Assembly (NCBI GenBank): GCA_015233495.1
Contig: JADFXQ010000001.1
Location: 2,790 to 66,789 of the forward strand
Length of the DNA: 64,000 bases
Direction of reading: 5' to 3'
Source: Candidatus Omnitrophota bacterium
Lineage (GTDB): Bacteria > Omnitrophota > Gorgyraeia > Zapsychrales > Zapsychraceae
The translations under genes and the position numbers were made by a program. Below are positions 2,411 through 55,604 of the stretch, piece by piece (within the stretch, counting starts at the first letter, position 1; each line of letters begins with the position of its first letter). Under the pieces are notes generated by a model. It did no database searches. It saw only the letters and a list, made by a program, of their open reading frames with translations, and was not told the DNA's origin.

Positions 2411-2411
2411 T

Positions 2412-31402: not shown

Positions 31403-32848
31403 TTAAGATTGCCGCAGGGGAAGGGAAACAATGAAAGTGGCTCCTTGGCCTACCGCGCTCTCAACGCGGATCGTGCCTTTATGCGCAGTCACAACCGACT
31501 TGGCAATGCTTAAACCCAGACCGAATCCCGGACTGGTGCGGGATTTTTCCGCGCGATAAAAACGGTCAAACACCCGGCCCAATTCTTCCGGCGCGATTCC
31601 CGGGCCGGTGTCATTGACCGTGAGTACGACGTGGCCGGCCCTCCGGGAAACCCGCAGAGCCACGGCGCCCTCAGCCGGGGTGTATTTCAGAGCATTATCA
31701 ATAATATTCGTCAGCACCCGTTCTATCTGGCGAATGTCTGCCTCAATCGCGACCGCGTCACTGGTGAGCAAACGTAACGTAATCCGTTTTTGTTCCGCGA
31801 CCGGACGAGCCGCATCAATAATCTGCCTTGTCAAATCCATTAAATCCACTTTTTCAATATTCAGCTCATATTCCACCCGGTCGAGCTGTGCCAGATCAAG
31901 CAAATTCTCAACCAGGGCGTTCATTTTATCTATCTCCTCGAGATTGACGGCCAGAATCGCTTCATATTCTTCGACCGAGCGCTGTTTATTCAGCGCGACT
32001 TCCTGTTTGCCTTTTAGCGCGGTCAAAGGCGTGCGCAGTTCATGCGACACATCCTGAATCAACTGCTGCTGCAGAGAAAACGCTTTATCCAAACGGCCCA
32101 ACATATCGTTAAAGGTTTCCGCCAGTCTTTTGGTTTCGTCATTTACCGCCGGCATCTTGATCCGCTGTTTTAAATTGCGGGAAGTTATCTGGCGCATCGC
32201 CTTGGTCATTTCATCGACCGGGCTCAAAGTGGTCCGGGTCAAAAAGAAACCCATCACCGTGACCAAAAACATGGCGGAAGGCAGAAAGATCAGCAAAACG
32301 GTTTTTATCCGACGAAGTTTAACATACAAGGGCCTTAAGGAGGCGCTGACTTGCACAAAATATTCCGCGCCGTTTTTATCAATCGGCCGGACCAGTGTCC
32401 GCACCGGCCAGACCTCTTCGGATTTAGGGACCACCCGGCCCGGGCTGTCAAAAAACCGATTCTTCTTGATGCCGGCAACGACGCGGGGCAAAATCTGGGG
32501 AAAAGGCCGGGCGCGCGAAGCGATCATTACCGACCCGTCCGGCTGGAACACTTGAATATAAATACCGCTGCCGCGGCTCCACTCCAAAGCGTTACGCAAG
32601 GTGTTCAAAAAATCCGCGTTAGTCTGCTCTGACTTGATACCGGCTAAACTGTCCCGGTCACGGTCAAGCATTGCCGCGTCAATGACCTGGGCAATGTCTT
32701 CTGCCCGGGACTCCAGCAAAAGATTAAAATCTTTGTTTAACACCCGGCTAAAATTGGCGTACAAACAGGCGCTCAAAATTCCGGCGATCAGGCCGACTGC
32801 CAGCACATACCAAAACGTCATCCGGAAATAAATTGATTTCGTAGGCAT
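31403..32848 (-). CDS. sensor histidine kinase (HAMP-HisKA-HATPase)
   Basis: Two TM helices; H-box HELRTPLTAL; N, G1 and G2 boxes. Confidence 0.8.
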   Translation of the reverse strand: MPTKSIYFRMTFWYVLAVGLIAGILSACLYANFSRVLNKDFNLLLESRAEDIAQVIDAAMLDRDRDSLAGIKSEQTNADFLNTLRNALEWSRGSGIYIQVFQPDGSVMIASRARPFPQILPRVVAGIKKNRFFDSPGRVVPKSEEVWPVRTLVRPIDKNGAEYFVQVSASLRPLYVKLRRIKTVLLIFLPSAMFLVTVMGFFLTRTTLSPVDEMTKAMRQITSRNLKQRIKMPAVNDETKRLAETFNDMLGRLDKAFSLQQQLIQDVSHELRTPLTALKGKQEVALNKQRSVEEYEAILAVNLEEIDKMNALVENLLDLAQLDRVEYELNIEKVDLMDLTRQIIDAARPVAEQKRITLRLLTSDAVAIEADIRQIERVLTNIIDNALKYTPAEGAVALRVSRRAGHVVLTVNDTGPGIAPEELGRVFDRFYRAEKSRTSPGFGLGLSIAKSVVTAHKGTIRVESAVGQGATFIVSLPLRQS

Positions 32849-39471: not shown

Positions 39472-40797
39472 TCATGACAAAAAATCTTTGGCATTTTCCA
39501 AGCTCAAGGCTTGCCATTGAATTTTATAACGGGGATAATCGGCGGTGAGTCGTTGGGCTTTACGTTTTAGTTCTTCGAGATTGATCTTGCGTTTGTTGAT
39601 TTTTACTTCCGCGATCAGCATTTCTTGTTTAAGATCGTTGACCGCCACGATATCGATTTCATTTTCATTGCCCTTTTCCCAATAAGAACCAATGTTATTA
39701 AACTTTTTGGATTCCGCGCATAGATCGCGATAAAATTGTTCCAAGACTTTTCCGGAGTAAACCGCGTAATCCCGCTTGATGATCTCCTTAATGTATTCAA
39801 AATTTTCCGATTCCACCGCCGAACGGTGGCGATAAATAAACCGGAACCAAAAATTTAAAAAATGATCGTTGATTTTGTATTTCTGCGACCGGGAATTGGG
39901 TTTGGCGTTGATGGGTTTATATTTGGCAATGATCGCGTAATCGTTTTCCAAACGGTCCAAGTAACCTCCCGCGTTCCCGCCCAGCAGAGACTCAATCTCC
40001 GATCGTCCGATCTTTCCTACGGAAATCAATTCCAAAATCGAAAAATAAGTGCCATATTCCTTGCCAAATTCCTCGATCAAAAGATTCCTTCCTTCACTCA
40101 AAAACGGCGAATTCGGGGCAATCATAAAATCAAGAATCTGATCCAATGAAAACGCCTTATTCCCGACCAACAGGTCAATATACTTGGGGCTTCCGCCGGT
40201 AAACAAATAAAAATCAAACAAGGCTTTCGTATCCTTGATTTTATGATCTTTAAGGATGTCTCCGATCGTCGCGATCGTGAACGGCTTGATCATAAAAATC
40301 CGATCAGCCCGATTGAACAGCGGCTCTTTGGAATGTTGAAATATCTTGTGTATCAAGGAATAGACGGACCCGACCACAATGACATTCAGCCGGGATTTTC
40401 GCTTATGCAGGTCCCACAATTTCTGAATGTCCGAATAGACCGCGGGATTTATATGATAAAATTCCTGAAACTCGTCCATGATCACCGTGAGCGGCTCGGT
40501 TTTGGCTGCCTGCAATAAAAGCAAAAAGATATCTTTGAAGGTGTGAATTTCGCCCACAAAAGGCAAATCGGGAAGCATCCGCTTGATCTCGGCAAGAAAC
40601 TCGGCGCACAACAAGGCCTCGGATTTTTTCGCCGTAAAAAAATAAAGGTGCCGCGTGTCTTTAACAAATTCCAAAGACAACAGCGTTTTTCCGACGCGTC
40701 GGCGTCCCGTCAAAACCGCCAAACGCCCCTCATCCGGAGATTGGGAAAAAAGCCGCTTTAAATCTTTTAATTCCTGCCGGCGATCATAGAATTTCAT
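39472..40797 (-). CDS. AAA-family ATPase of the 'archaeal ATPase'/DUF234 type
   Basis: Walker A GRRRVGKT; C-terminal DUF234-like region. Confidence 0.6.
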   Translation of the reverse strand: MKFYDRRQELKDLKRLFSQSPDEGRLAVLTGRRRVGKTLLSLEFVKDTRHLYFFTAKKSEALLCAEFLAEIKRMLPDLPFVGEIHTFKDIFLLLLQAAKTEPLTVIMDEFQEFYHINPAVYSDIQKLWDLHKRKSRLNVIVVGSVYSLIHKIFQHSKEPLFNRADRIFMIKPFTIATIGDILKDHKIKDTKALFDFYLFTGGSPKYIDLLVGNKAFSLDQILDFMIAPNSPFLSEGRNLLIEEFGKEYGTYFSILELISVGKIGRSEIESLLGGNAGGYLDRLENDYAIIAKYKPINAKPNSRSQKYKINDHFLNFWFRFIYRHRSAVESENFEYIKEIIKRDYAVYSGKVLEQFYRDLCAESKKFNNIGSYWEKGNENEIDIVAVNDLKQEMLIAEVKINKRKINLEELKRKAQRLTADYPRYKIQWQALSLENAKDFLS

Positions 40798-40941: not shown

Positions 40942-43536
40942 TTAAAATTTTTTCACATCCGCCGGCATTTCCCGGTTGTTCAGGCCCAACAGCGGCAAAA
41001 CGCTGGGCAAAGGCGTGATTCCCAGAAAAATCGCTTCTAAACCCCGAAAATGTCCCGCCCGCAGCTCTGCGCCAACCGCCGGGTCGAATTTAAATTCAAT
41101 GCCTGATCCTTCTTTAGCGATTTCCATTCCCATTCGTTTTCCATTAAACGCCACACCGCCGAGCGGCGTCATTTCAGCCGGCGAAGATTGCTGCGCGCCT
41201 GCGGCGCTCACCTCATGAATAGCTTCGCTATTGACCGCCAGTCCTTCAAAGGCGAGTCGCAACGCGATCAATTCTTCCGGCAACATATTCGGGAATTTAA
41301 AAATATTAAAACGCCATTCAGATCCAAAGGGGGCCTGTAATAAATAATCAGACAGCGACGAAATTGGACGCCGATTGCCATTAGGCGCCACAATATCGAT
41401 CGACGCGTAAACACCGGGGTTAACCGATGAATCTTTATCACCCATTTGCGGCGCGCTCTGATATTCCACTCGATATCCTTCCGGGAGTTTGGGGTATTCC
41501 CGAACCTGGTTTAATATAGAGTCTGGCGCACTGTCCCCACTTAAAACACCTCCCAAAGCCTGAAAAATTCCCGCATAATGTATAATGCTTAGTTCCCATA
41601 TTGTTTTTTCCCAAATACGGATTTGCATTTCCCGATAAGCATCTACCACTGCTTTATTGACCAGTTCCAAGACTTTGCCTCTGGGCAAAGCCAGAATGAC
41701 ATCATGCTGCTGCAGCCCGGGATCACTCGCCACGGTTGTTTGGAATGTAAAAAACAACGTGTGTTTCTCTTTCGCCATATCGGCTATGCCCTGCTCAGAA
41801 GGGGACGGATCGATTCCATCTTTCCTTACAACTGACCTGATGCTTCCGTCTCTGAGCTGGATGCCATCGACCACCACCCCATCAACAGCCTGACGTTCCC
41901 GTAGAAAAAATTGCAAGGCAGGAGCCGTGGTTTGTTGTCCCCAATATCGGTTACTGGCGCCATAAGTGAACTTGATTTCATTTTGAAGCTTGGGCAATAA
42001 GCTTTTTATATCTTTTTCCAAAGCCAGCACTGGCGGTCTAACCACCACCACATTTTGATTTGGCAGAACCACTGTCACAATCACACTCTGACGAATTTGG
42101 AGGGCCTTTTCCCAATCTTCCGGCTTTGGATCAGTATTAAGATGCAATTCATCTCCTGTCCCTGCTAACAAAAACATATCTTTACCCGGATCTTCCTGAA
42201 TGCCGACTTTGACTTCAGCAGCATACCAACCTCGTAAAATCTTTTGATAATCCCCCGCGGTTTTTGTCCCGGGATAACTTAAATTTCGCAGAATGTCCGA
42301 CATGATCGACGCATCGCGTTGAGTCAACTTCGCGGGCGATGATTGCGCCGCTTTGGTTAATTTGGTGTATCCTATGGGCTGCATCCTTTCTGTCACAAAA
42401 ACGGCGTCCGAGACGAGCAAAAGCGCGGTTTCCGCCGGAGAACTGCTATACGCCGTAACGGGGTCTGGTAACATATGTAATCCGCCGGAAAAATATTTGC
42501 GGGAAGTGGTCTCTTCCGTGACCGGATCCGTGTCTTCTTTGATATAGTTAAAAACCCCCTTGGAAAATGCGTGTAAATACCGTTCATAAATCTTGTCTTT
42601 TTCAGCAGGATCCGCGGTTTTGACGCCTTCGATTTTGCCGGTGTTGCTGTATACCTCATTGATCAGGGCGTTTTTTAAGGTTTTTTTGTACCACGAAGCC
42701 AGAATCATCGCATGAAACATCTGGCGCAATTGGGTGAAATTCTTGCCTTGATTCACTTCTTTTTCAATTTCGGGAATGACCACTTCCTTGACAGCCGAAG
42801 CCGCCATGCTTTGAGCGGAGCGAAATAGCGGCGGAGTGCCGAACCCAGTCAGTTCGGCTGTTGTTTTCTTTTGAATCGCCACATAATCCTCTTCCATCAT
42901 CACCTTCAACTTCCAGCCGATCACAAAAGCCGTATTATTTCGTTCCAAGACCTTGGCATGGTCCGCCACGATCCAGACTTTATTAAATGTATCCACCGGG
43001 ATATCCACATTGCCGTATTGCTTACGCACCTTGGCATAAACAGTATCCCAGAATTTTTTCCCCAATTCTTTTTCCGGGTACATCAAGGAAGCGGTCAATT
43101 GTTTCAAAACATAATCCTGCGCTAACATATCCCGCCCCATTTCCGTTTTTCCTAAAGCATCCGGAACGATCCGGTTTTTTTCATACGGCGAAAAGTTCAC
43201 CCAGAGATCTTCGTCCTTAATCGTAAGGCTGGCCAAAAAATACTTAATCAGTTTTTGCGCCTCCGCCTTGAATTCCGGGCTATTGGTCTTATATCCGGAA
43301 TGGCCGGAATCAATAATAAAATCAAACAACAACGGATTATCCGGATGGACGACCAGTCCTTTCATCATGACCGGCGTGTACATAGGTGTCAATCCGACCA
43401 TTGCTCCCGGCGCCGGCAAAAGCAAAGGCCCGGCAAATACGCTTTGTCCCGGACCAAAAGCCCATCCGCAGAAAAAGATTAACCATACGGTAAAAATACG
43501 ATAAAAAAGAGTTTTTTTGAATTTGCTGATGGACAT
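40942..43536 (-). CDS. secreted 864-aa protein, paralog of the N-terminal domain of the giant protein
   Basis: Signal peptide; blocks LWVNFSPYEKNRIVP and FWDTVYAKVRKQYGN..VWIV align with the giant ORF. Confidence 0.65.
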   Translation of the reverse strand: MSISKFKKTLFYRIFTVWLIFFCGWAFGPGQSVFAGPLLLPAPGAMVGLTPMYTPVMMKGLVVHPDNPLLFDFIIDSGHSGYKTNSPEFKAEAQKLIKYFLASLTIKDEDLWVNFSPYEKNRIVPDALGKTEMGRDMLAQDYVLKQLTASLMYPEKELGKKFWDTVYAKVRKQYGNVDIPVDTFNKVWIVADHAKVLERNNTAFVIGWKLKVMMEEDYVAIQKKTTAELTGFGTPPLFRSAQSMAASAVKEVVIPEIEKEVNQGKNFTQLRQMFHAMILASWYKKTLKNALINEVYSNTGKIEGVKTADPAEKDKIYERYLHAFSKGVFNYIKEDTDPVTEETTSRKYFSGGLHMLPDPVTAYSSSPAETALLLVSDAVFVTERMQPIGYTKLTKAAQSSPAKLTQRDASIMSDILRNLSYPGTKTAGDYQKILRGWYAAEVKVGIQEDPGKDMFLLAGTGDELHLNTDPKPEDWEKALQIRQSVIVTVVLPNQNVVVVRPPVLALEKDIKSLLPKLQNEIKFTYGASNRYWGQQTTAPALQFFLRERQAVDGVVVDGIQLRDGSIRSVVRKDGIDPSPSEQGIADMAKEKHTLFFTFQTTVASDPGLQQHDVILALPRGKVLELVNKAVVDAYREMQIRIWEKTIWELSIIHYAGIFQALGGVLSGDSAPDSILNQVREYPKLPEGYRVEYQSAPQMGDKDSSVNPGVYASIDIVAPNGNRRPISSLSDYLLQAPFGSEWRFNIFKFPNMLPEELIALRLAFEGLAVNSEAIHEVSAAGAQQSSPAEMTPLGGVAFNGKRMGMEIAKEGSGIEFKFDPAVGAELRAGHFRGLEAIFLGITPLPSVLPLLGLNNREMPADVKKF

Positions 43537-44701: not shown

Positions 44702-44799
44702 AATATCGTCCGGATTTGAATGTAACTAATTACTTAAAATATACCTGATTCCGCAACAAACGTCAATATATTGGGCAAATAAATAGTGACGGGAAAATT

Positions 44800-44975
44800 A
44801 TTGCTGGATCAGAAGCAGAAAACTAATCAGCCAAACTAATATTTTCGATCTTGAGCCGATCCAGGATCTGCGTAAAGTTAAATAAGTCCTCATAATATAA
44901 GTATAAAATATAAATCGACGGAAAATAAGGGCGGGACCGGGGGGTTGGGAAAGCGTTTTCTTTATGGCAGCACTA
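44800..44975 (-). pseudogene. duplicate of the giant-gene promoter plus first 31 codons (MRTYLTLRRSWIGSRSKILVWLISFLLLIQQ*), upstream of lacI
   Basis: About 85-90% DNA identity to 54167-54320. Confidence 0.6.
44949..44960. promoter_or_regulatory. LacI-type operator-like half-palindrome GAAAGCGTTTTC (AANCGNTT core)
   Basis: Sequence motif; a counterpart, GAAAAAACGCTTTC, is present at 54304-54317. Confidence 0.3.
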
Positions 44976-45063
44976 TAATGGAGAATCCGCTGAGTTAAGA
45001 TCAGAGAGAACATTGACAAACCAACAATTTCATGTTAACTTAATAAAAAATAGGAGACAAACC

Positions 45064-45234
45064 ATGAATTCCAAAACAACCCAAGCGCTCAAACATTTGC
45101 ATAAAGCGCGGGAACTGGCGAAAAACTTAGATAATCCGTTCAAAGGTCTCACCAAAGAAGGAATCATTAACCAATTACGCGCTTCCCGGGAAAAACTCTG
45201 GTTGGAAAAGTATGCGGTTAGTTCTCGACACTAA
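45064..45234 (+). CDS. putative antitoxin (VapB-like)
   Basis: Small basic/helical protein with a TAGGAG Shine-Dalgarno, overlapping the downstream PIN gene. Confidence 0.45.
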   Translation: MNSKTTQALKHLHKARELAKNLDNPFKGLTKEGIINQLRASREKLWLEKYAVSSRH

Positions 45235-45619
45235 TGTCTTCATCTTCGCGTTCGGCGAAGCCGAAAATGTATCTTGCGTGAGACTGATTGAAACTTTGAC
45301 AGTCCTCAAGGCATCCATTCATATTCCCCGCACAATTATCCGCGAAGTCCAAAATAGCCTGCGCCCTATATTGTTCAAAGAATTCATTCTCTTTCTGAAT
45401 AAAGCGGCGCATATCGAAGAAGATCACGTTGTCTCTTTTGAGCTCGGCATGAAATACGAAGCTATGGGACTAAAACCCGCCGATGCTTTTATCGGCTCAT
45501 TTACGGAATGGGTTGGCGCGGAAATTCTCGTGTCGGAAAACCGCCATTTTCTTTCCCGGCAATCCAATTTGCCGTTTAAAGTCTTAACGGCTGAAAAATG
45601 CCTCAAATTTTTTAAATAA
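45212..45619 (+). CDS. vapC: PIN-domain toxin (VapC family)
   Basis: LVLDTNVFIFAF N-terminal acidic motif and further conserved Asp residues. Confidence 0.7.
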   Translation: MRLVLDTNVFIFAFGEAENVSCVRLIETLTVLKASIHIPRTIIREVQNSLRPILFKEFILFLNKAAHIEEDHVVSFELGMKYEAMGLKPADAFIGSFTEWVGAEILVSENRHFLSRQSNLPFKVLTAEKCLKFFK

Positions 45620-45688: not shown

Positions 45689-48600
45689 TTATTCCGAATG
45701 CAGCATCACCAGCATCTCCCGCATCTCAGGATCAGTGGGGGATTGTTCGTCTTCTTCAAGGCGCAGGATGTCCGCGATACAGCCCAAGACCGCCGGGCGT
45801 TCTTTTTTCAACCGGCCGTTTTGATATGACGCGGCCACATAATTTGCAATCCGCCGGATCGCGGGGATGCCCCCTTCCGCCAACATGGCCTGGATGGCAG
45901 CCCACTCGTCTCGAGAATTAAAATCCGCGGGCAGCTTAGCCGCCATTTTTCGCCACCCGTATAGAGAATTGGTTCCTTTCTCAAAGGGGGACAACTCCCG
46001 CAAGTCAACGCCGCCGGGATTCTCCGCGGATTCCGCCGGGGCCGGCGAACTTTGGCGCCGGGTTGCGCCTAATTGCGTTGTTACCGGCGAACCGGCCGCG
46101 TCAGCCCGCGCCGGGTCTATTCCCGAATCTTCACCCTCCAGAACAAACCAGTTGCATGCAACCCATTTCATCATTTGAGCGAACGGGCCGACCGGTTGGT
46201 GGGTAAAACCGCTTTTGGAATCCGTTGACACAAAACCCCGGCGCAACTGCTCCCGGACATCCAGGTTCGTCCTGACCGACTCTTCCAATAAATGCGCTAA
46301 TTCATGAATAATAACATCCGTAGCTTGACAAATCACGCCCGGACCAGCAACCCCAATTTGTCCCGCCAAAGCACGGTTCAGAAACATTGTCGGCTTTTCC
46401 TGGCCTTTGGGGCCATAATACCCGAACGCGCCCGCGAACCGCAGTGACTCATCAGGTAAATCACTCAACAACACAACCTGCTCTATGCCGAAATGCCTCG
46501 CCCCGGATAAAGCCAAATCCCGCAATTCCTTTTCCCGATCAGTATAGGCGCTGGTATTGATCATAAATTTTTCAGGATGAGAAATTTGTTCAATACCGGT
46601 TGTCACATCAATTGACTTGCTGACCATCTCATCAAAATCCGCTATATCTTCGGCCTGCGGTACGGCTTCCAAAATATATCCGGCTTGCTCTGCCGCGCGT
46701 TGCAGCGCTTTGGATGCTTTTCCCAAAAATGACGGCCGCTGCTTTTCCCGTTCTATTTGCAACTTCATACGCCGTCCAAATAAACTGATTGTTTTCCCGG
46801 GCCTATCCGGATTCGGCACATTTAACATTAAAATCAATTTAACAAAGTTCGGAACCACAAGGTCTTTTTCCCCATACTGCGCCGGCAGAGATTCTAATTC
46901 CTCAGAGCTAATCAAGGAAAATTGACCGGCATTGATCTTGTTCGCCAACGCGCTGATGGCCCGATCGTGTTGATCAATGGCTAACGAATAATGTTCTCTC
47001 GGCTCTCTTTCCCATTCGACAGGAAAACCCTCAAAAGTAAATTGACCCTGCTCTGCCGTGGCTGGCATCATTGTCCGCAAAGCCAAAGCCTTATAAAATT
47101 CGATTGCCACATATCTCTGAACTATGGATTTATAATGTTCGTCAAAATGCGCGAACTTGTCGCGATTGCCGGTCAGCGGCAACGGGACCTGCACGATCAA
47201 CCCCAGTTGTTGAATATGCTTGCGTAAGGCCGGCGGGACGAGCGCGAAATACTGGGCTTCATCCAACTCGCATACCCGGCGGCCAAATTTGTCTACGACC
47301 TGCGACGGCATATCCCTAGCGCTAATGATTTTAAATTTGCCGTCAAACGTATGGGTTTGCGACGCGATAAGAAAATCCCAAGCCTGGGGAAATTCTTTCT
47401 CCAATGTCCGCCGGATAGCTTGCTCCGCTTGGTCCCAACCCTCCCGCAGGGTGATCTCATTGTCGCCAACCCGATACGCCCACCCGCGCTCCACCATGAT
47501 CCCCGCAAACCTGGACCACTCCCAACTGCGGGGCGCCCACCCGGCCCACCAACGGCGCGGTCGAGGCAATTGCGTCTCAAATTCCTGCCGGGTGATCGGC
47601 TTGCCTCCGGCAAGTATGGCCTTAAAATCGGTTTCACTTAAAACCTGATGATCCACAGTCAGCAGTTCATTGTGAGTCTCGCCGTCGATACCGCGCCGGA
47701 AATATATCCCAAATCCGCCGCTGGTTCGCGGCCCATCCGCAGTGGAAGAAAGTCCGGAAAATATCTTATACGCGCGCTCGGACAGCATCGCGTCAAATTC
47801 CGGGATCGTGTCTTTCGCTTTTTTGATCCGCCGAATCAAAACCCCATCCTGCACATTGGGGTCGCTAATCTTCCGGATCCGGGTGAGCTTCACGTGAAGC
47901 GGGTTGCCAAACGCGTCTTTGGAAACTTGGATCACAAACATATAACCCGTCCCTTGCCGGCAGGTAATGATTTCCACGCGGTCCACCCCGGCCAAAAAAG
48001 TATATTTCCCTTTCCCAAAAAAACCGGCAGAATGTTCTTGCTCATCCGCTTCTTTAGTCGACACCTTGATCAACAACGCTGCCGCGTAAGCCGCGCCGGG
48101 TCCGTCGTCCTGGAAAGCCTCCACATATTCTTCTTCGCCGTTATTGTCCTGCAAATAATGGTCAATGACCAAGGTTTTCGCGCCCGCGTCCTGGGCGTTG
48201 GCCGGACCTTCGCGAGCGGCCGCGTCAGCTTCTCCCTGTACCTTGACATCGAACAGCACATCCTTTTCAGATTGGGGATCGGTTTCCGGCAAAGACACCG
48301 CAGGGTCCTGAATCGCGGCTATCAAATCGTCCATCGCAATAACCGGCTGGCCGTTCTTGGGCCGGCGTCGTTCCAAATCGTTCAATCGGGAAAGGTCAAT
48401 TCCCTGCGGATAATGCCCAGTGCCGTCCGCCAACAAAACGTCTTCGCCATTCGGCAAAACCGGTTGCCCGCGATGCGGCAATTCATCGATCTCTTGAGTC
48501 AAAAAAGCCACGACCGGACGCGCGTATCCCATGTCATGGCCGGCCAGCGGATCATCCGCGTAGGCCAACAAGAGCCGGATGCCAACAGTCTGGAAACTCG

Positions 48601-51600
48601 AACATAATTTTTTCAGAAAATTGACTTTGCTTTGCTCTTCCGCTGTGAGGATCCGGCTGATTTGCTTGGTCATGATCGGGATATGATGAACCGGATCATT
48701 GCCGGCAAACCGGGCCAAGAACGCCACCGCATCTAAAAGCCCAGACGTGTTGATTCCCGTAAACGTAGTAAGCGCTCTGATCAATTGAATCACCGCTTCC
48801 AGAGCCCGGACTTGTTCAACAGTGTCCATTTGCCAGCCGCCGCCTAAAGCGAGTACCGCTTCCAAAGATAAATCCGTCGCGGCATCCTCGTCCAGAGCCA
48901 TTTGAAATAAACTGCCAAACAATTGCGTATAAAAAGCTCGCCGCGTTTTATGGACATTGGGTAAACGTTCGGCAACTGTTTCCAGATAACCCGGCAAACC
49001 GGACATGATCCGGGCCATCCGCCGCTCAAATAACTCAAACGGCAGTCCGGTCAAATCTAATTCCTGCCCTTGTGCCGCCGCGGCAAAACGCCGCCGGATT
49101 TCCGCGGTCTGCTTTGCAAACAACCGGTCAATCCCCGCTTCGATCCGTCCGTTGATTTCATCTTGATAATCCGCGCACTCCTCGGGAACCAAGGCCGCGA
49201 ACCCCAAATAAGCCGCTCTGGCCTGAGCAATCCAGGCTTCACCCTGACTCATAATTTTTTCCTGCCACAAAGCATCTTCGCGGCGCTCCGGCTCTACTGG
49301 AGCAGCTGCCGGCAGCTCAATTGGGACCTCAGACACCGCTCTTATTCTCTCCGATAAGTTCGCATAAAACGCTCTTATAATTTCCTCGTAAATAGCCGTC
49401 GGCGGCGCCAACGCCGAAGTTCGAACCCGGGTGCGCCGCGGGTCCAAATAAATACTCTGGCCCGTGCTCGCGTTGGTGAAAACAAAATACTCCCCGTTCA
49501 CATGCACATAAGCAAAAGCGTCGGGTACACCCTGGGGAATTTCCCGAACGTTTCCTTGCGCGTCGAATATTGCGAGTCTACCCTGTAAAATAAATTCGCG
49601 GCTCTTTGTTATCGTAATAGAAAGCGATGATAAGTTTACGCTATGGAATTTTTGGGTTCCCTCATCCCAAACCACCAACATCGAATCATCTTTCCGGTCA
49701 ACCCACCAACTCTTGCCGCCTTTTAAAGGTAAGATCTCCGTGGTTATACCGCAATCAAATTGTTCTTCCTCTACCTCGCTTTTTAAATTTCGGAATAATG
49801 TGTCACCCTGCACATTGCCAATATTCCGCCAAACAGCCACATTACCGAACAATTCCACAGTTGTACGGTCCTGTTTCGTCGGCGGATTGGAACTATAATG
49901 TATCCTTGTCCCCATAATCATGAATAAGCCGAACCTATCCGCAATTTGGTATATGTTGCTCCCCGAAATATCATACCCTTGCCAGAATTCCGGGCTGGCT
50001 TGGCCGGACGGAAACTCCGGAATTGATTGTTCATTATACAATTGCCTTAGGACAAGTGTGTTTTTATTCCTTAGAAACGTCAACATTTCATTTTTGTCGC
50101 GGCCTTCGAAAACTACATAAACAAATCCCGCATCATTACTGATAAAAATTTTTTCTTTGAAATCTGGCATCCTGGTTGTAACCGGTTCTCCTGACTTTAA
50201 ATTGATCAAACCTAATTTATTCCCTATTTTATAAATCGCAATCATGCCGCTGGCGTCGATCTCAATATGCTCCGCGTTCCAAATCAGCGGTTTACCCGAT
50301 TCCAAGGAAAAAAGGCCATAGGTATTATTCCTTTGCTTGGCAATGACCACATCCGCTTTGTCGTGAACAACGTATTCACTGATCTCCCTGAATGACGTGA
50401 ACCCAGTCAGCTGGGGAAGCGCGGCGTCATGATCGCAATATTTGATCTCATTTTTAAACCGCTGGACGGAAAACCGCCCGGAAGCGGACAGTTGAATGTC
50501 CCAGGCGCGCTTCCGCGCAGACCTGGTCGTAGGTAAATTTCGAATATCTATGATCTCTTTCCCGCCCGCCTGATCAACATATTCCACAATCAAAAACCGA
50601 TCCGTATGCGACACCATATAGCAATCGTGCACCGTCCAGAGCAGTTCACCCGCGGGATTATAGATATCAACCTTTCGAGAAAATATTCTCATGAAATAGT
50701 TGTCTTCCATTCTAATGAATCGTGCTATTCCTATCTCAATATGGTCTTCTGCTGGAGCGTCTGACGGTTTACTGAACAAAAATATAGAATCCGCTGGCGC
50801 GGCCTGTGACCCTTCAGCAAACGGCGCCACAACCGTTTGGGAAGGTCCCGGAACAAAAGCAGTTGCCGGAGGGCGGCTTAAATCTTCCCGAAACCTCTGC
50901 TCTGCGGCGGCGCCTATGCTGCCTGCGTTGGAAACAGCCGGCCAAGCCGGTTTCGCCGGCGCGGCCGTCGGGGCGTCGATAACATTCGCTTCCGCGAATC
51001 CCGGCCGCATTTCATATCCCGTGACAAGGGCCTCCCCCGTCATCTTATTGATCTGCTCCCACATATGCGCCAATTCTTTGCGTTCCTGCGCATTCAGACC
51101 CGTTGATTTTTTCGCCAACTCAAACAACCTTTGCCCAAAAGAATTGCGCCCCTTGCCTGAGGGCACAGCCACAAAATCTTTGGCACGGACCAGCGCCAAA
51201 TCCCGGTCAACTTGTTCGCTGGATACCGCCTTTCCGTTTACCGCAGCCAAACTTTCCGCGGTGAACGGCAAAACCACCACTGACAACTCGCCTTTCAACA
51301 GCTTATCCGGGATCACCTGGCCGCCCAATTGACTCGCGATAAACGTGGCAGTGCTGTCAAACAAATCTTCATGCAGCCAAATCACTTTGTCTTCTTTTCC
51401 CTTCGGAATTTGCACCTTGCGAAAATCCGTATAATACGGCAAAAGCAGATATCCCTGCGCTTGATATTCTTTTAACCAAGGCTTAAGCGCTTTCTTGATC
51501 TCCATCTTTATTTGATCGATGACATTAGCATGCTTGCCGTTTTCACCAATCAATCCATCCAAACCGCAAACCAGCATATTGATGTACCGGATCTTATCCG

Positions 51601-54250
51601 GTGTCAGGATATCCGGATTCGTTAAAATGCCCTGAACTGCGCGATTGACCGCAAACTGAAAATTCCCTTCTAACCTCGCTTCTTCCGGAAGCTTGACCTC
51701 GTCCCGAGCTTCCGGCACATCCAAAAATCCCGCCAAATCCACCAATAGGCCTCCCTCCGCCACCGCCTGCGGCAATACCCGGTCCGGGATTTGCACAGCT
51801 TTAATCACTTCATACCTGCGGCCGAATGAAACCTCTCTTTTGGAAGACAAGGGGTCAAAAACGACACTGATCCGCTTGGCTTCTTGGTCCCGTTTTGCCC
51901 CGTCCAATTCATCCGCTTGTTTTGAACCCTTCACAAACATCCGTGACAAAACACCCGCGTCCATGCCTTTTCCATTATCCACAATCACAATTTCCCCGTC
52001 GTGAGACCAGATATGCACCCGCCGGGTTGCCGCGTCCGCCGCCCTTTGGGCCTTTCCGGTGTGGGGAACAAGCACAACCTTGCGGTCAAAATCGTTCAAT
52101 TTTTCGCCCTGCACATAAATCGTGACATCCGGCACATAAGCAAACCGGTTGGCCAACTCGGTGATCATTGTGTTTTGAAACGCCGCGTCCGCGTCTTTTT
52201 TTCCCGGCGCCCAATCCTGACTTTTAACGCGCACCACTGTGCCCTGAGTGATTTCATTTTCTCCCAGCGCCGCCTGTTGAAACACAGACCGGTCAATGGC
52301 TTTAATCTGAATATAATTTTGCCCGGACCGGCTTTTTAAAATCGTGAGTTGATAATAATCTCCGTCCCGGGCGCGCGTCAGCACTTCAATGCGGTCCTGT
52401 CCGCTGGGGCCCAACCATTCCAAGATCTGCTTCACGCCTTTTCCAAATTGTCCGATATCGCACCCCAAGGCATCCAAACTGTTGGACACCGCTTCAAAAA
52501 TAGCTTGGGTTTTAGGTTTTTGGCTTTGTTTATCCGTGAGTTTTTTCAGATAAGGATTTTTGTAAGTGTCTTGATTTATGCTGTCAATGATCGCTTTATT
52601 GTATTTGCCGCCGGATAATTCTTTTAAAAGGTCTTGGATGGCTGCGGCAAACGCTTGTTCCCGTCTCGCTTTATTCATAGCATCCAAGTCATAAGCTTGC
52701 GGAGCCAAACCCGCCAAAGTCAATACCTGCTTAAGGTGATCCGCTTGCATACCCAAACTCAATTGTTGCTGAGCGTGAAAAAAATGCTCTAAATCAATAC
52801 CAGAAAAACCCAATTCCGGGTCTTCATAAGCAAAGGCTTCCGAACTGATTTGGACTTCAGCCGGTTTCGGTCCGGAGAACGACTCTTCATCTTTATTGAC
52901 GTTTATTGTTTTTCGGAATAACGACTTTAGTTTATCGAGCCAGCTCGCTGCCGGGGATGAAGACGACTTCATCTCCGTTACCTCCGAGGATACGGCCGAA
53001 ACCGCCGGGATCTGTTCTGCGTCCAGCCCGCCCCTGATTCCAATCGGAATGACGGACGGAGAAATCGGCAAAACATTGGCCGGGTTCGGAATATAAACCG
53101 CGGAAGAAACTGTCAAATCAAACCCGCCGCTCACATAGGTCCGCACGGTTTGGCCGTCGGGAGTGTCAACTGATTTTTCGCTGTTATATTCGCCGTTTTG
53201 AAAAGATTTTTTGTAGGCTGAGAAATAAGTGTCTTTGGACCAGGTTGTCTTAGATTCAAGACCCGTGAGGTTTTGTTGATCGATCAGGTTGGGATAAGTT
53301 CCGGATTGGTTTTTATATCTTTTTTTGAACCATTGCGCCAAGATCAGCGAGTAATAAACTTGCCGAAATTGCGCATACCGTTTGGCTGTGTTGACTTCCT
53401 TGGTCAGCCGCGGAATTATGAGTTCGCGAATCTGCTGGGACGCGTATTCATTGATGGCTTTTAATTTTGGGTCAGTAAAATTGTAGTCCGGGTCGTTTTT
53501 GAGATGGTCCTGCTGTAGCATGACTTTGAGCGTGGCTTTGTAAATGTAGGCGCCCCCCTCCCCTCCCCATGCTTCGCGGGGGAGGGGTTTTGCATACTGC
53601 TTTTCTTTTCGGATTCGTTCGCTCTCTATCTTTTCCTTTCTATTTTCACTAATGATAATTTCCCCCGGCACGATCCACGGCCGGGTCATAGTCGGGATAG
53701 CGATTTCCTGATTGCCGTAGATTTCACCGGCTTTTTTATAGACCCGGGTCCAATATTCCCGGCCTTCCGGGGTTTCCTGGGACACGTATTTGGCCATGTC
53801 CTTCTTCAACTGCAAATCCGCGGCCAGCAAAATCCGCCCGATATCCGTGCGCGCTAATTGCGGGTCAATGCTATGATCTTTGTCTTCCGGCCGCAGGTTC
53901 ACCCAGAACATACTGTTCGGCAAAGTCAGGCCGATAAAAAAATAATTCAGCAGGTCTTTGGCAGTGGATTCGATTTCCGGCGACTTGACATTTTTCTGAT
54001 CGCCTTTATCCAACAGCAAATCAAACTTATTAAGGGGAATGTTGTAAGCTAAATACCGAAAATGCAAAGGCCGAAACTTGTCCGCGACCAGCATATTCCC
54101 CAACCCGGACATCGCGCCGGCCACATCCAAAGACACTGCCAACTGCGCCAATCCGGTCTGCTGGACCAGAAGCAGAAAACTAAGCAGCCAAACTAATATT
54201 TTTGACCGAAAGCAGATCCAGGATCTGCTCAAGGTAAAATTAGTCCTCAT
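45689..54250 (-). CDS. giant secreted multidomain protein (2853 aa) with GHKL-ATPase-like motifs and a C-terminal HExxH zincin-like motif
   Basis: Signal peptide; N-domain paralogous to 40942-43536; EAVSNSLDA...DNGKGMD and DAGAKT..DDGPG..GFFGKGKYT Bergerat-fold motifs; IIHELAHLLEE. Confidence 0.8.
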   Translation of the reverse strand: MRTNFTLSRSWICFRSKILVWLLSFLLLVQQTGLAQLAVSLDVAGAMSGLGNMLVADKFRPLHFRYLAYNIPLNKFDLLLDKGDQKNVKSPEIESTAKDLLNYFFIGLTLPNSMFWVNLRPEDKDHSIDPQLARTDIGRILLAADLQLKKDMAKYVSQETPEGREYWTRVYKKAGEIYGNQEIAIPTMTRPWIVPGEIIISENRKEKIESERIRKEKQYAKPLPREAWGGEGGAYIYKATLKVMLQQDHLKNDPDYNFTDPKLKAINEYASQQIRELIIPRLTKEVNTAKRYAQFRQVYYSLILAQWFKKRYKNQSGTYPNLIDQQNLTGLESKTTWSKDTYFSAYKKSFQNGEYNSEKSVDTPDGQTVRTYVSGGFDLTVSSAVYIPNPANVLPISPSVIPIGIRGGLDAEQIPAVSAVSSEVTEMKSSSSPAASWLDKLKSLFRKTINVNKDEESFSGPKPAEVQISSEAFAYEDPELGFSGIDLEHFFHAQQQLSLGMQADHLKQVLTLAGLAPQAYDLDAMNKARREQAFAAAIQDLLKELSGGKYNKAIIDSINQDTYKNPYLKKLTDKQSQKPKTQAIFEAVSNSLDALGCDIGQFGKGVKQILEWLGPSGQDRIEVLTRARDGDYYQLTILKSRSGQNYIQIKAIDRSVFQQAALGENEITQGTVVRVKSQDWAPGKKDADAAFQNTMITELANRFAYVPDVTIYVQGEKLNDFDRKVVLVPHTGKAQRAADAATRRVHIWSHDGEIVIVDNGKGMDAGVLSRMFVKGSKQADELDGAKRDQEAKRISVVFDPLSSKREVSFGRRYEVIKAVQIPDRVLPQAVAEGGLLVDLAGFLDVPEARDEVKLPEEARLEGNFQFAVNRAVQGILTNPDILTPDKIRYINMLVCGLDGLIGENGKHANVIDQIKMEIKKALKPWLKEYQAQGYLLLPYYTDFRKVQIPKGKEDKVIWLHEDLFDSTATFIASQLGGQVIPDKLLKGELSVVVLPFTAESLAAVNGKAVSSEQVDRDLALVRAKDFVAVPSGKGRNSFGQRLFELAKKSTGLNAQERKELAHMWEQINKMTGEALVTGYEMRPGFAEANVIDAPTAAPAKPAWPAVSNAGSIGAAAEQRFREDLSRPPATAFVPGPSQTVVAPFAEGSQAAPADSIFLFSKPSDAPAEDHIEIGIARFIRMEDNYFMRIFSRKVDIYNPAGELLWTVHDCYMVSHTDRFLIVEYVDQAGGKEIIDIRNLPTTRSARKRAWDIQLSASGRFSVQRFKNEIKYCDHDAALPQLTGFTSFREISEYVVHDKADVVIAKQRNNTYGLFSLESGKPLIWNAEHIEIDASGMIAIYKIGNKLGLINLKSGEPVTTRMPDFKEKIFISNDAGFVYVVFEGRDKNEMLTFLRNKNTLVLRQLYNEQSIPEFPSGQASPEFWQGYDISGSNIYQIADRFGLFMIMGTRIHYSSNPPTKQDRTTVELFGNVAVWRNIGNVQGDTLFRNLKSEVEEEQFDCGITTEILPLKGGKSWWVDRKDDSMLVVWDEGTQKFHSVNLSSLSITITKSREFILQGRLAIFDAQGNVREIPQGVPDAFAYVHVNGEYFVFTNASTGQSIYLDPRRTRVRTSALAPPTAIYEEIIRAFYANLSERIRAVSEVPIELPAAAPVEPERREDALWQEKIMSQGEAWIAQARAAYLGFAALVPEECADYQDEINGRIEAGIDRLFAKQTAEIRRRFAAAAQGQELDLTGLPFELFERRMARIMSGLPGYLETVAERLPNVHKTRRAFYTQLFGSLFQMALDEDAATDLSLEAVLALGGGWQMDTVEQVRALEAVIQLIRALTTFTGINTSGLLDAVAFLARFAGNDPVHHIPIMTKQISRILTAEEQSKVNFLKKLCSSFQTVGIRLLLAYADDPLAGHDMGYARPVVAFLTQEIDELPHRGQPVLPNGEDVLLADGTGHYPQGIDLSRLNDLERRRPKNGQPVIAMDDLIAAIQDPAVSLPETDPQSEKDVLFDVKVQGEADAAAREGPANAQDAGAKTLVIDHYLQDNNGEEEYVEAFQDDGPGAAYAAALLIKVSTKEADEQEHSAGFFGKGKYTFLAGVDRVEIITCRQGTGYMFVIQVSKDAFGNPLHVKLTRIRKISDPNVQDGVLIRRIKKAKDTIPEFDAMLSERAYKIFSGLSSTADGPRTSGGFGIYFRRGIDGETHNELLTVDHQVLSETDFKAILAGGKPITRQEFETQLPRPRRWWAGWAPRSWEWSRFAGIMVERGWAYRVGDNEITLREGWDQAEQAIRRTLEKEFPQAWDFLIASQTHTFDGKFKIISARDMPSQVVDKFGRRVCELDEAQYFALVPPALRKHIQQLGLIVQVPLPLTGNRDKFAHFDEHYKSIVQRYVAIEFYKALALRTMMPATAEQGQFTFEGFPVEWEREPREHYSLAIDQHDRAISALANKINAGQFSLISSEELESLPAQYGEKDLVVPNFVKLILMLNVPNPDRPGKTISLFGRRMKLQIEREKQRPSFLGKASKALQRAAEQAGYILEAVPQAEDIADFDEMVSKSIDVTTGIEQISHPEKFMINTSAYTDREKELRDLALSGARHFGIEQVVLLSDLPDESLRFAGAFGYYGPKGQEKPTMFLNRALAGQIGVAGPGVICQATDVIIHELAHLLEESVRTNLDVREQLRRGFVSTDSKSGFTHQPVGPFAQMMKWVACNWFVLEGEDSGIDPARADAAGSPVTTQLGATRRQSSPAPAESAENPGGVDLRELSPFEKGTNSLYGWRKMAAKLPADFNSRDEWAAIQAMLAEGGIPAIRRIANYVAASYQNGRLKKERPAVLGCIADILRLEEDEQSPTDPEMREMLVMLHSE
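53546..53594. repeat. related palindromic element (GTAGGCGCCCCCCTCCCCTCCCC-N9-GGGGGAGGGG) inserted in-frame in the giant gene (encodes PLPREAWGGEGGAY)
   Basis: Direct reading of the sequence; the paralog at 40942-43536 lacks this segment. Confidence 0.6.
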
Positions 54251-54389: not shown

Positions 54390-55604
54390 ATGTCAGATCG
54401 GCCTATGTATACTCATTTATGGCAAGAACTCTCCGCTACCAAGCCGATGGTTTTTTTAAGCGGACCGCGTCAGGCGGGAAAAACCACTCTGGCCCGATCC
54501 ATCTCATCTCTGTATGCCAACAACCTTTATACCAACTGGGATATTCAAACCGACCGGAAAACAATTCTTCAGAATCCATATTTTTATGAAAATCTGGAAC
54601 AAAAAGACGCGTCCCCCGCTTTAATCATCTTCGATGAAATTCACAAATACCGCGGCTGGAAAAATTATCTAAAAGGGGTTTACGATAAAAGCCACTCGAC
54701 CAACCGCTTCTTGGTTCTCGGCAGCGGACGGTTGGATATTTTCCAAAAAGGTGGCGATTCCTTGGCCGGACGTTATTACCTGGCTCATGTTTTTCCACTG
54801 ACCTTGGCGGAATTAGGAAACCGCCGTAAAACATTCCCTGCCTTCTGGCAAAATCCGCTGGATTTGGCGCCGGCGGGAAATTTGGAAAATGTTTGGAACA
54901 ACCTCAAAAATCTGACCGGATTTCCCGAGCCATTTTTCGCCGCTGATGTGAAAAATTATCAACGCTGGTCTAATACTTACAGCCATCAATTGATCCGGGA
55001 GGATATCCGCGATCTGACAAAAATACGAGATTTGGACAATGTGGAGGCCTTGTATTATCTCCTTCCTTCCAAAATCAGCAGCCCGCTTTCGATCGCCAGC
55101 CTCAGCCGGGACTTGCAAGTATCATTTAACACAGTTAAAGATTGGCTTGCCGTTTTTGAAAGATTATATCTCACCTTCCGTATTACTCCCTGGACCAAAA
55201 AACTATCCCGGGTTGTCACCAAAGAACAAAAATTATACCTGATGGATTATGGCCAAATTCCCGATCCGGCCGCGCGGTACGAAAATATGATTGCCGTCGA
55301 ACTTTTACGCGCCGTATCCCATTGGACCAACCTGGGTTTCGGCCGGTTCTCGCTCCACTTTTTACGCAGTAAGGAAGGCCAGGAAGCTGATTTCCTCATC
55401 GCTGATCGAAACACGCCGCGGCTCATCATCGAGGCTAAACTTTCCGATCCCGCGATCTCCGCCCCACTCTTGAAATTTCAAAATATGCTCAACCTCCCCG
55501 CGGTCCAACTCGTCGATAAAAAAGGTGTTTTTCGGATCAGCGCCAACGGCGCCAACCGGATCTTGACCGCTTCCGCGGCCGATTGGTTATCGCAATTGCC
55601 ATAA
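54390..55604 (+). CDS. AAA-family ATPase (AAA_14 + DUF4143-like architecture)
   Basis: Walker A GPRQAGKTT; Walker B IIFDEIH; long C-terminal domain. Confidence 0.65.
   Translation: MSDRPMYTHLWQELSATKPMVFLSGPRQAGKTTLARSISSLYANNLYTNWDIQTDRKTILQNPYFYENLEQKDASPALIIFDEIHKYRGWKNYLKGVYDKSHSTNRFLVLGSGRLDIFQKGGDSLAGRYYLAHVFPLTLAELGNRRKTFPAFWQNPLDLAPAGNLENVWNNLKNLTGFPEPFFAADVKNYQRWSNTYSHQLIREDIRDLTKIRDLDNVEALYYLLPSKISSPLSIASLSRDLQVSFNTVKDWLAVFERLYLTFRITPWTKKLSRVVTKEQKLYLMDYGQIPDPAARYENMIAVELLRAVSHWTNLGFGRFSLHFLRSKEGQEADFLIADRNTPRLIIEAKLSDPAISAPLLKFQNMLNLPAVQLVDKKGVFRISANGANRILTASAADWLSQLP

Follow-up and report, generated by a model that had tools for sequence, protein, structure and literature searches.

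One very large gene bears on the question of how Omnitrophota act on their hosts. These bacteria are widespread, uncultured and very small, and other cells are believed to be their hosts or prey. The gene lies in a stretch of 64,000 nucleotides (nt) from a Candidatus Omnitrophota bacterium (assembly GCA_015233495.1, contig JADFXQ010000001.1, positions 2,790 to 66,789), referred to here as the window. Its product, the giant protein, had been described in a sequence-only reading as a secreted protein of 2853 amino acids (aa) that combines GHKL-ATPase-like motifs with an HExxH metalloprotease-like motif, and all of the motif strings quoted there are present in the open reading frame (ORF). The analysis leads to the conclusion that the giant protein is a conserved, previously undescribed variant in a known class of Omnitrophota multi-enzyme proteins. 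Two of its parts, called here modules A and B, are predicted to be GHKL-type, and module B includes a zincin-like domain.

The case is best begun with module B, in whose ATPase domain three Bergerat motifs had been recognised in order. The succession I-II-III is canonical (ExxxNxxD, DxGxG, GxxGxG), with NAQDAGAKT at residues 2018-2026, DDGPG at 2048-2052, GFFGKGKYT at 2076-2084 and a catalytic-type glutamate at 2014 that completes ExxxNxxD. The ordered triplet with canonical spacing appeared in 0 of 5000 shuffles of the giant protein; single motifs were not rare in them (P = 0.05 for HExxH, 0.07 for ExxxNxxD and 0.21 for DxGxG). The motifs are near-invariant, their residues being kept in 100-122 of 118-122 relatives: E2014 in 116/118, N2018 in 117/118, D2021 in 105/119, D2048 in 116/120 and the G2 glycines G2076, G2079 and G2081 in 122/122, 121/122 and 122/122, respectively. 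In the middle region of the module, R2363 is found in 130/131. An alignment of 12 homologues shows as invariant the N and D of motif I, the D, G and G of motif II, the GFFGxGK of motif III, the H, E and H of HExxH and a TH pair 30 residues further on.

Profile and structure comparisons point in the same direction. The Pfam family HATPase_c_3 matched module B below its threshold (E 7.5e-5, 23.2 bits against a cut-off of 25), and the module B family profile retrieved Hsp90 N-domains (E 5e-4) from the PDB, the G1-G2 region being the part aligned; the single sequence of the module found no match there. An AlphaFold2 model built from the homologue alignment reached a mean per-residue confidence (pLDDT) of 70.8, with values of 80-89 over most of the ATPase domain, and a predicted template modelling score (pTM) of 0.66. 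This was the structural check suggested together with the sequence-only reading, and it predicted a Bergerat fold. The Foldseek search of the model against the PDB returned GRP94 (1.4e-9), HtpG, TRAP1, MORC2, Topo VI-B and GyrB, all GHKL ATPases and all with probability 1.0, at modest template modelling scores (TM-scores) of 0.2-0.54. Alignments of 500-800 columns to full-length Hsp90s, MORC2(1-603) and Topo VI-B extend past the ATPase domain. Since the TM-scores are modest and the model is only moderately confident, the module is read as a GHKL ATPase with a transducer-like second domain and is assigned to no one subfamily. Module B is thus predicted to contain a Bergerat-fold GHKL ATPase domain. 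A two-component histidine kinase was considered and rejected because neither HisKA nor HAMP was matched in Pfam; a true histidine kinase in the window, at 31403-32848, gave strong matches. The module also harbours an in-frame Trp-/Arg-rich insertion of about 85 residues (…RPRRWWAGWAPRSWEWSRFAG…; residues ~2215-2300, DNA ~47351-47608, minus strand), which has low pLDDT and is private to the giant protein, being absent in 11/11 aligned homologues.

The HExxH motif noticed near the C-terminus lies in the string IIHELAHLLEE (residues 2647-2657), and it is conserved together with a downstream histidine in about 110 relatives (H2649 108/110, E2650 108/110, H2653 109/110, E2656 103/110, H2684 95/98). 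In the AlphaFold2 model, three short strands are followed by the helix that bears HExxH (module residues 683-702), which is the usual layout of zincins; around H2684, which is with E2656 a candidate for the third metal ligand, pLDDT falls below 50. A sub-profile of 22 sequences had its best PDB match in 3e11, deposited as a 'predicted zincin-like metalloprotease'; the match takes in the strand and the helix of HExxH, at E 0.12. No curated peptidase family was reached, the best values being E 0.0055-0.7 in single members and E 0.15 for NCBIfam HEXXH_WD0702. The weak Pfam matches of family members are to metallopeptidase families in 7/12 cases, none of them significant, and include Tox-MPTase3 (four members, best E 0.031), Peptidase_MA_2, Zincin_1, M90, SprT-like, ATLF and M78. 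The minimal zincins (Zincin_1/3e11, SprT-like, Tox-MPTase3, Peptidase_MA_2) likewise carry an HExxH helix after a small sheet, and differ in the downstream FTH-x-x-x-G-x-F-A-x-x-M motif, which is specific to the family of the giant protein; the likeness to them is not significant. The HExxH site is almost certainly a conserved zincin-type metal site, as predicted from these comparisons, that belongs to no curated family.

The second ATPase-like part, module A, had been noticed in the middle of the protein through an N-box-like and a G1-like string. Both stood, but the module proved to hold all three motifs rather than two: EAVSNSLDA at 586-594, IGQFGKG at 599-605 and DNGKGMD at 758-764, that is, in the non-canonical order I (586), III (600), II (758). 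They are conserved among relatives: E586 in 71/72, N590 in 72/72 and D593 in 71/72 for motif I, the GxFGxG of residues 600-605 in 67-72 of 72, and D758 in 74/74, G760 in 71/74 and G762 in 73/74 for motif II. When residues 560-720 were compared by hhalign with the GHKL domain of module B (93% probability, E 2.8e-7), motif I aligned with motif I, the strand-G1-lid segment of module B was skipped, and motif III and the next strands were matched. Residues 721-830 matched exactly the skipped segment, though more weakly (35%, E 3.9e-4). The comparison of whole modules was weak (23%), and only sub-profiles of deeper alignments gave a clear answer. Module A also has the Hsp90-like strings E-x-x-S-N-S-x-D-A, IGQFG-x-G and DNG-x-GM...G-T-K, and the stretch of its family consensus aligned to HtpG in a PDB search (E 0.049, not significant) reads vDNGkGMDaevlaRmFVPkkGTKe. 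The best curated match is the NCBIfam sacsin ATP-binding-like family (6e-5, below the cut-off), over 37 residues around the G1 loop. Pfam HATPase_c matched the mid-region of the giant protein at E 0.085, and the equivalent site of the relatives P0321 and P0324 at 28.6 and 30.2 bits against a whole-protein cut-off of 26.4 bits, which no single stretch passes alone. Module A is read from these alignments as a GHKL-derived domain whose G1 segment has shifted about 110 residues downstream, with a putative Bergerat folding.

The two modules form one conserved unit, as judged from their joint distribution. An exhaustive HMMER search of the module B profile against 1.84 billion cluster representatives yielded 199 proteins at E <= 1e-3, with 95 of them at E <= 1e-30; in nearly all, the match covers all 627 profile positions, so that it reaches from the ATPase domain through HExxH; a second homologue search with module B alone returned one protein only. 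In the collected set, 75/77 proteins with module A also have module B, always with A before B and with 395-2981 residues between them. The paired modules occur in roughly 100-200 clusters, most of them from Omnitrophota. When one genome per GTDB species was taken, 39 loci were found, most of them in Candidatus Omnitrophota metagenome-assembled genomes (MAGs); the remaining ones carry unconfirmed labels such as Planctomycetia, Elusimicrobia, Ratteibacteria or Pseudomonadales.

That a fusion of several genes by misassembly or gene calling had produced the ORF was a concern for a metagenome-assembled source. The reading frame is open, with neither a stop codon nor a frame break, across 8.5 kb, and its translation matches at 100% identity a hypothetical protein, HQL23_00250, from a Candidatus Omnitrophica MAG, where the annotation starts 6 residues short of the full length. 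Another 11 proteins (2671-4307 aa; NCBI, ENA, JGI and Logan assemblies) have the same order of the long middle and C-terminal parts, and P0007 is collinear with the giant protein over residues 15-2212, 2283-2698 and 2778-2853. Because homologues in independent assemblies are collinear, a chimeric assembly is strongly disfavoured. Identical domain order recurs in dozens of proteins from unrelated assemblies, and the sole piece specific to the query is the 85-residue insertion, which is in frame. An artefact is therefore largely refuted already and its chance is negligible, and the giant ORF is, on this comparative evidence, one real gene. Two ORFs run antisense inside it, at 47648-48607 (+; 319 aa) and 47220-47648 (+; 142 aa), in a part that is richer in G+C than its surroundings (0.52-0.53 against ~0.46 nearby); they probably arise from this base composition and code for no protein.

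Table 1. Predicted features of the giant gene and of its paralogue (positions refer to the window; the residue column refers to the giant protein).
Feature	Residues	Positions	Strand	Remark
Whole ORF		45689..54250	-	ATG start, 2853 aa + stop codon
Sec-type signal peptide	1-35	54146..54250	-	predicted cleavage GLA/QLA (slash marks the site); hydrophobicity and family pattern, judged by rule of thumb
N-terminal domain (N-dom)	~36-385	53096..54145	-	ends in invariant YxSGG; phylum-specific, without structural match
Low-complexity linker	386-454			
Module A	455-1130	50861..52888	-	rearranged GHKL-like ATPase module + conserved downstream region
Variable region	1131-1650	49301..50860	-	
Conserved linker	1651-1959	48374..49300	-	before module B; aligned in 10-11 of close homologues
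Module B, including HExxH domain	1960-2712			
Module B GHKL ATPase domain	1995-2180	47711..48268	-	
Module B middle region	2181-2544	46619..47710	-	transducer-like
Zincin-like domain	2545-2712	46115..46618	-	HExxH 2649-2653
C-terminal domain (C-dom), type 1	2745-2853	45692..46018	-	starts GGVDLR; at extreme C-terminus of 113/119 N-dom homologues
864-aa paralogue		40942..43536	-	signal peptide, N-dom type 2, cargo without family match, C-dom type 2

The region between the modules is far less constant than the modules themselves. Its variable part is common to only P0002 and P0007; in P0004 it is swapped for TPR-like repeats, and in P0011 it is absent or almost so. Beta-rich repeats occur between the modules in the query, P0002 and P0007 and are multiplied in P0003 and P0005, and WD40/Kelch matches lie at the same place in the distant relative P0324. 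The variable region of the query had no Pfam match, and its BLASTP comparison with the WD40/Kelch-bearing relative was not significant. Judged from the sequence pattern only, this region is probably beta-propeller-like, and the conserved linker that follows it, which matched no Pfam family, may be helical.

The N-terminus bears out the signal peptide that had been proposed. A Kyte-Doolittle scan finds a single hydrophobic segment in the giant protein, at residues 11-29, and the N-terminus consists of a positive n-region (R2, R9, R15, K17), a short uncharged h-region and GLA/QLA (the slash marks the predicted cleavage site). This pattern is shared family-wide. Proteins with the same type of N-dom (type 1) start with an n-region of median net charge +3, which precedes a stretch of exactly 12 hydrophobic, uncharged residues and then E-Q-S-G-F-A/Q-V-A; the cleavage-site string is GFA/QVA in 45/120 and GFA/QIA in 21/120, and A35 and Q36 hardly vary. 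The corresponding segment of type 2 proteins ends A-Y-A/Q. Read directly, the giant protein has a positive n-region, a short h-region and small residues at -3/-1, as is typical of signal peptidase I substrates; cleavage is a prediction. The N-termini of both types thus carry, by their sequence features, the marks of cleavable Sec signal peptides and not of membrane anchors. A lipoprotein was rejected, the lipobox cysteine being absent after the h-region, as was an autotransporter or type IX secretion system C-terminal signal, the C-dom having neither a match nor a terminal aromatic residue (by eye only).

The twin-GHKL/zincin core is also found behind other signal-like N-termini. Further, a more distant clade of about 1700-2150 aa (P0318-P0333, P0341; loci L039, L042) has the same core of module A, WD40/Kelch region and module B with zincin, and it has no signal peptide, no hydrophobic N-terminus and no N-dom; these proteins start with a conserved RNNFLALYWDKPL-like motif. 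The clade comes from AT-rich genomes, one member being in a MAG labelled 'uncultured Gammaproteobacteria' (GC 37%).

The next result concerns the domains that enclose the machine. The sequence-only reading had reported an N-terminal domain shared with the 864-aa protein encoded nearby. This sharing was confirmed (BLASTP E 7e-40, 28% identity over the first ~400 aa), but the 864-aa protein is not its sole sharer: the N-dom occurs in thousands of proteins and is paired with a C-dom. The homologue search with the giant protein was dominated by Omnitrophota proteins of 1500-4900 aa whose match to the query is confined to its first 13-15% (identity 50-57%). Precomputed Pfam annotations of these proteins show metallophosphoesterases, methyltransferases, GNATs, hexokinase, phosphoenolpyruvate-utilising enzymes, HAD hydrolases, kinases and more. 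The subfamily of the 864-aa paralogue comprises at least 3532 clusters at 90% identity, with AYA/Q-type signal peptides and a cargo that includes phosphoglycerate kinase (PGK), enolase, phosphofructokinase (PFK), phosphoglucomutase, glutamate dehydrogenase, adenylate kinase and receiver and GGDEF domains; the middle of the paralogue itself (~400 residues) had no match to any family. At the other end, the last ~110 residues are common to 113/119 listed homologues with the N-dom of the query, at <=30 residues from the C-terminus, and start as GG[IV]D[FL] across the family.

There are two types of N-dom and two of C-dom, and their pairing was strict among 240 proteins (113 N1/C1, 113 N2/C2, 0 mixed), a count taken from hit lists ranked by whole-protein score, which favour matches at both ends. 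P0012 carries the twin-GHKL cargo of the query inside the other bracket type, and members of 500-550 aa consist of little beyond N-dom and C-dom. At least five N-dom genes are present in this MAG (HQL23_00230, HQL23_00250, HQL23_05855, HQL23_09330 and P0155). With its signal peptide, its N-dom ending in YxSGG and its C-dom of the matching type starting with GG[IV]D[FL], the giant protein belongs to the bracket family as defined in this analysis. A PDB profile search with the N-dom alignment was dominated by low-complexity tails and gave no match within the domain itself; the C-dom had no Pfam match. In thousands of Omnitrophota proteins with signal peptides, N-dom and C-dom bracket very diverse enzymes of cytoplasmic type. 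A trace of the giant gene's own N-terminus was found at 44798-44950 (-), upstream of a LacI gene: about 45 nt of upstream sequence and the first 31 codons are duplicated there, followed by a stop codon, and encode MRTYLTLRRSWIGSRSKILVWLISFLLLIQQ (~150 bp at ~90% DNA identity; tblastn 77% aa identity over residues 1-31). This duplicated leader could have been left behind by an N-dom gene that was lost or recombined, or it could have a regulatory role that both copies share.

What such a protein might do can be approached through the GHL ATPases (Hsp90, MutL, GyrB, MORC), in which ATP binding closes two GHKL domains on each other and so forms a clamp. Binding and hydrolysis of ATP by modules A and B are predicted from their conserved motifs. 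By extension from the established clamp closure of GHL ATPases, the two unlike modules of one chain would close on each other upon ATP binding, as an intramolecular clamp. The variable beta-rich region between them would hold a protein substrate, which the attached zincin would cut. An exported protein that requires ATP would have to act where ATP is present outside the cytoplasm, and because the family is rich in glycolytic and signalling enzymes with signal peptides, the cytoplasm of another cell or an ATP-containing compartment would fit best; with less confidence, the protein may be taken to act within a host or prey cell or on its surface, and the N-dom/C-dom pair would then serve export, surface attachment or delivery. 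The best explanation at present is that the protein is exported and couples an ATP-driven clamp to a metalloprotease, although this stands evenly poised between being right and being wrong. A wider proposal goes beyond it: N-dom and C-dom might be a dedicated cassette, specific to the phylum, by which these ultra-small bacteria export enzymes, display them at the surface or deliver them into host or prey cells. Enzymes that are otherwise cytoplasmic would then be effectors by the thousand, and the giant protein one of them, an ATP-driven chaperone-protease with a topologically rearranged GHKL domain that acts on host proteins by means of host ATP. This is a speculative suggestion, and it is unlikely to hold.

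The likeness to Hsp90 (HtpG, GRP94, TRAP1), which gives the best profile and fold matches for module B, extends to the working principle proposed here. It is limited by several differences: the giant protein has two different GHKL modules per chain where Hsp90 is a homodimer, the G1 of module A has moved, and a zincin and an export signal are added. No match to an Hsp90 family profile came from Pfam or NCBIfam; the sequence match is confined to the ATPase domain, and there was no sign of a C-terminal dimerisation domain. For the catalytic arginine that marks the Hsp90 middle domain, the invariant R2363 is a candidate at most. With MORC2(1-603) and Topo VI-B, about 500 Foldseek columns of the module B model cover the ATPase and the following domain, at low TM-scores of 0.3-0.4; the DNA-binding, nuclease, CW and topoisomerase parts of MORC, Topo VI-B, MutL and GyrB were not found in the giant protein, and PADLOC gave no match to defence-type MORC-like proteins. 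Sacsin is another giant protein with repeated Hsp90-like domains, but an orthologue of it was rejected, as the G1 loop alone matches and the UBL, DnaJ and HEPN parts are absent. In MARTX toxins, the two ends are likewise conserved and enclose a changeable set of enzyme domains, which take effect within another cell. The likeness of the giant protein to them is an analogy only: glycine-rich repeats, a cysteine protease domain and type I secretion genes were not seen here.

Several observations weigh against the proposed clamp-protease. ATP is normally unavailable outside the cytoplasm, and relatives without any signal peptide imply that the core machine can work in the cytoplasm and is not intrinsically extracytoplasmic. 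No curated profile of Pfam or NCBIfam reaches threshold anywhere on the giant protein; the case is carried by family profiles, predicted structure and residue invariance. For module A it is made by sequence comparison, its motif order is non-canonical, and a PDB search with its sub-profile was not significant (Topo VI-B, E 0.7). The third metal ligand and the fold of the zincin are at the candidate stage. No conserved neighbour gene, adjacent secretion system or partner was found across the homologue loci, and the ranking of the hit lists bears on the strict pairing of the terminal domains. Finally, the coupling of clamp to protease and the site of action are what we infer.

A serious rival is that the protein stays intracellular, with its hydrophobic segment as an uncleaved tether or unused, and works as a cytoplasmic ATP-dependent quality-control or regulatory protease, like its signal-less relatives. 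The two ATPase sites have the look of functional ones, and ATP is found in the cytoplasm; enzymes and domains typical of the cytoplasm (PGK, enolase, PFK, adenylate kinase, receiver, GGDEF) occur in the N-dom family; the clade of ~1700-2150 aa has the same core without a hydrophobic N-terminus; and a preprint of 2026 interprets many proteins of this kind as anchored in the membrane, their domains lying in the cytoplasm (doi 10.64898/2026.06.07.730766). The charges around the hydrophobic segment speak otherwise, the n-region being positive and the other side neutral or acidic, which predicts an N-in, C-out orientation; further, the 12-residue h-region of the family is too short to span a membrane, and a small-x-small cleavage motif is conserved after it. 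That the protein is cytoplasmic, its N-terminus unused or serving as an anchor, is for these reasons the less probable choice, yet one to be taken seriously. If, on the other hand, the protein is exported and the zincin is the toxic head of a secreted polymorphic-type toxin, the upstream parts would be its delivery. The signal peptide, the modular build with swapped middle regions and the weak Tox-MPTase3 matches in four family members (best E 0.031) would suit such a toxin. The zincin is, however, the conserved part and not the variable one, it lies away from the extreme C-terminus, no conserved immunity-like gene follows downstream, and the Tox-MPTase3 matches are not significant, which leaves a toxin improbable.

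The ATPase-like and HExxH motifs might also be relics, in a non-enzymatic surface coat or adhesin. Such roles have been proposed for giant Omnitrophota proteins (PMC10066038), and both the sub-threshold curated matches and the rearrangement of module A could be taken in this sense. The catalytic-type Glu, the Mg-binding Asn, both glycine loops and HExxH...H are nevertheless kept in nearly every member (50%-identity clusters), and this near-universal retention argues that they are not relics, which would have drifted. Pfam scans found no adhesin-type repeats or domains, and a coat or adhesin is very improbable. Among these possibilities, the exported clamp-protease remains the preferred explanation.

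The giant protein has its place in a class that is already published. Large multi-enzyme Omnitrophota proteins with signal peptides or membrane helices have been described, with HATPase among their commonest domains, and surface or predation roles have been proposed for them (doi 10.1101/2023.11.21.568195; doi 10.64898/2026.06.07.730766; PMC10066038). They can reach 10,000 to 147,000 aa, with many membrane helices and SecA-like and C39 domains (doi 10.1101/2023.11.21.568195; doi 10.64898/2026.06.07.730766). Among them, 'Archaeovorins' are characterised by >30,000 aa, many membrane helices and a SecA DEAD-like domain (doi 10.1101/2023.11.21.568195). The giant protein shares with these large proteins the phylum, the signal peptide and the stringing of enzyme-type domains, but falls outside the features of 'Archaeovorins', with 2853 aa, one hydrophobic segment, no SecA match in Pfam and no C39 domain. 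The claim that its combination of domains is undescribed held in Pfam, NCBIfam, PADLOC and the papers found; the giant protein is, however, as a member of this class, no isolated oddity. Within a limited coverage of the literature, the shared terminal domains, the twin-GHKL/zincin unit and the rearranged GHKL are not mentioned in the three sources (doi 10.1101/2023.11.21.568195; doi 10.64898/2026.06.07.730766; PMC10066038).

The genes around the homologue loci vary and are mostly housekeeping. In the window, the neighbours of the giant gene are a PIN-type toxin pair, genes for AAA-type ATPases, the LacI regulator and the 864-aa paralogue. The PIN pair (45013-45619, +) is wedged between the leader duplicate and the 3' end of the giant gene and consists of a 73-aa ORF that runs into the beginning of a second ORF of 135 aa, which has a PIN domain (Pfam PIN, E 3e-5); it looks like a VapBC-type toxin-antitoxin pair. 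The AAA-type ATPase genes at 39472-40797 (-) and 54390-55604 (+), with ATPase_2 + DUF234 and AAA_14 + DUF4143, flank the pair of N-dom genes. Both family combinations are often found in mobile or defence contexts; PADLOC gave no defence-system match. A weak match to the magnetosome protein MamF_MmsF was observed at locus L040 (22474-22800), two genes downstream of the homologue P0004.

In conclusion, the locus reveals a conserved predicted machine in which two Hsp90/MORC-like ATPase modules, one of them with an unusual segment order, are combined with a zinc protease behind an export signal. The pair of terminal domains around it also frames thousands of predicted exported proteins, among them glycolytic enzymes, kinases, methyltransferases and regulators. 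Should these proteins stay in the cell, the frame would still amount to a large family, uncharacterised so far and worth naming. Should it serve export or delivery, it would delimit the set of effectors of an entire phylum and account for the signal peptides on ATP-dependent enzymes there.

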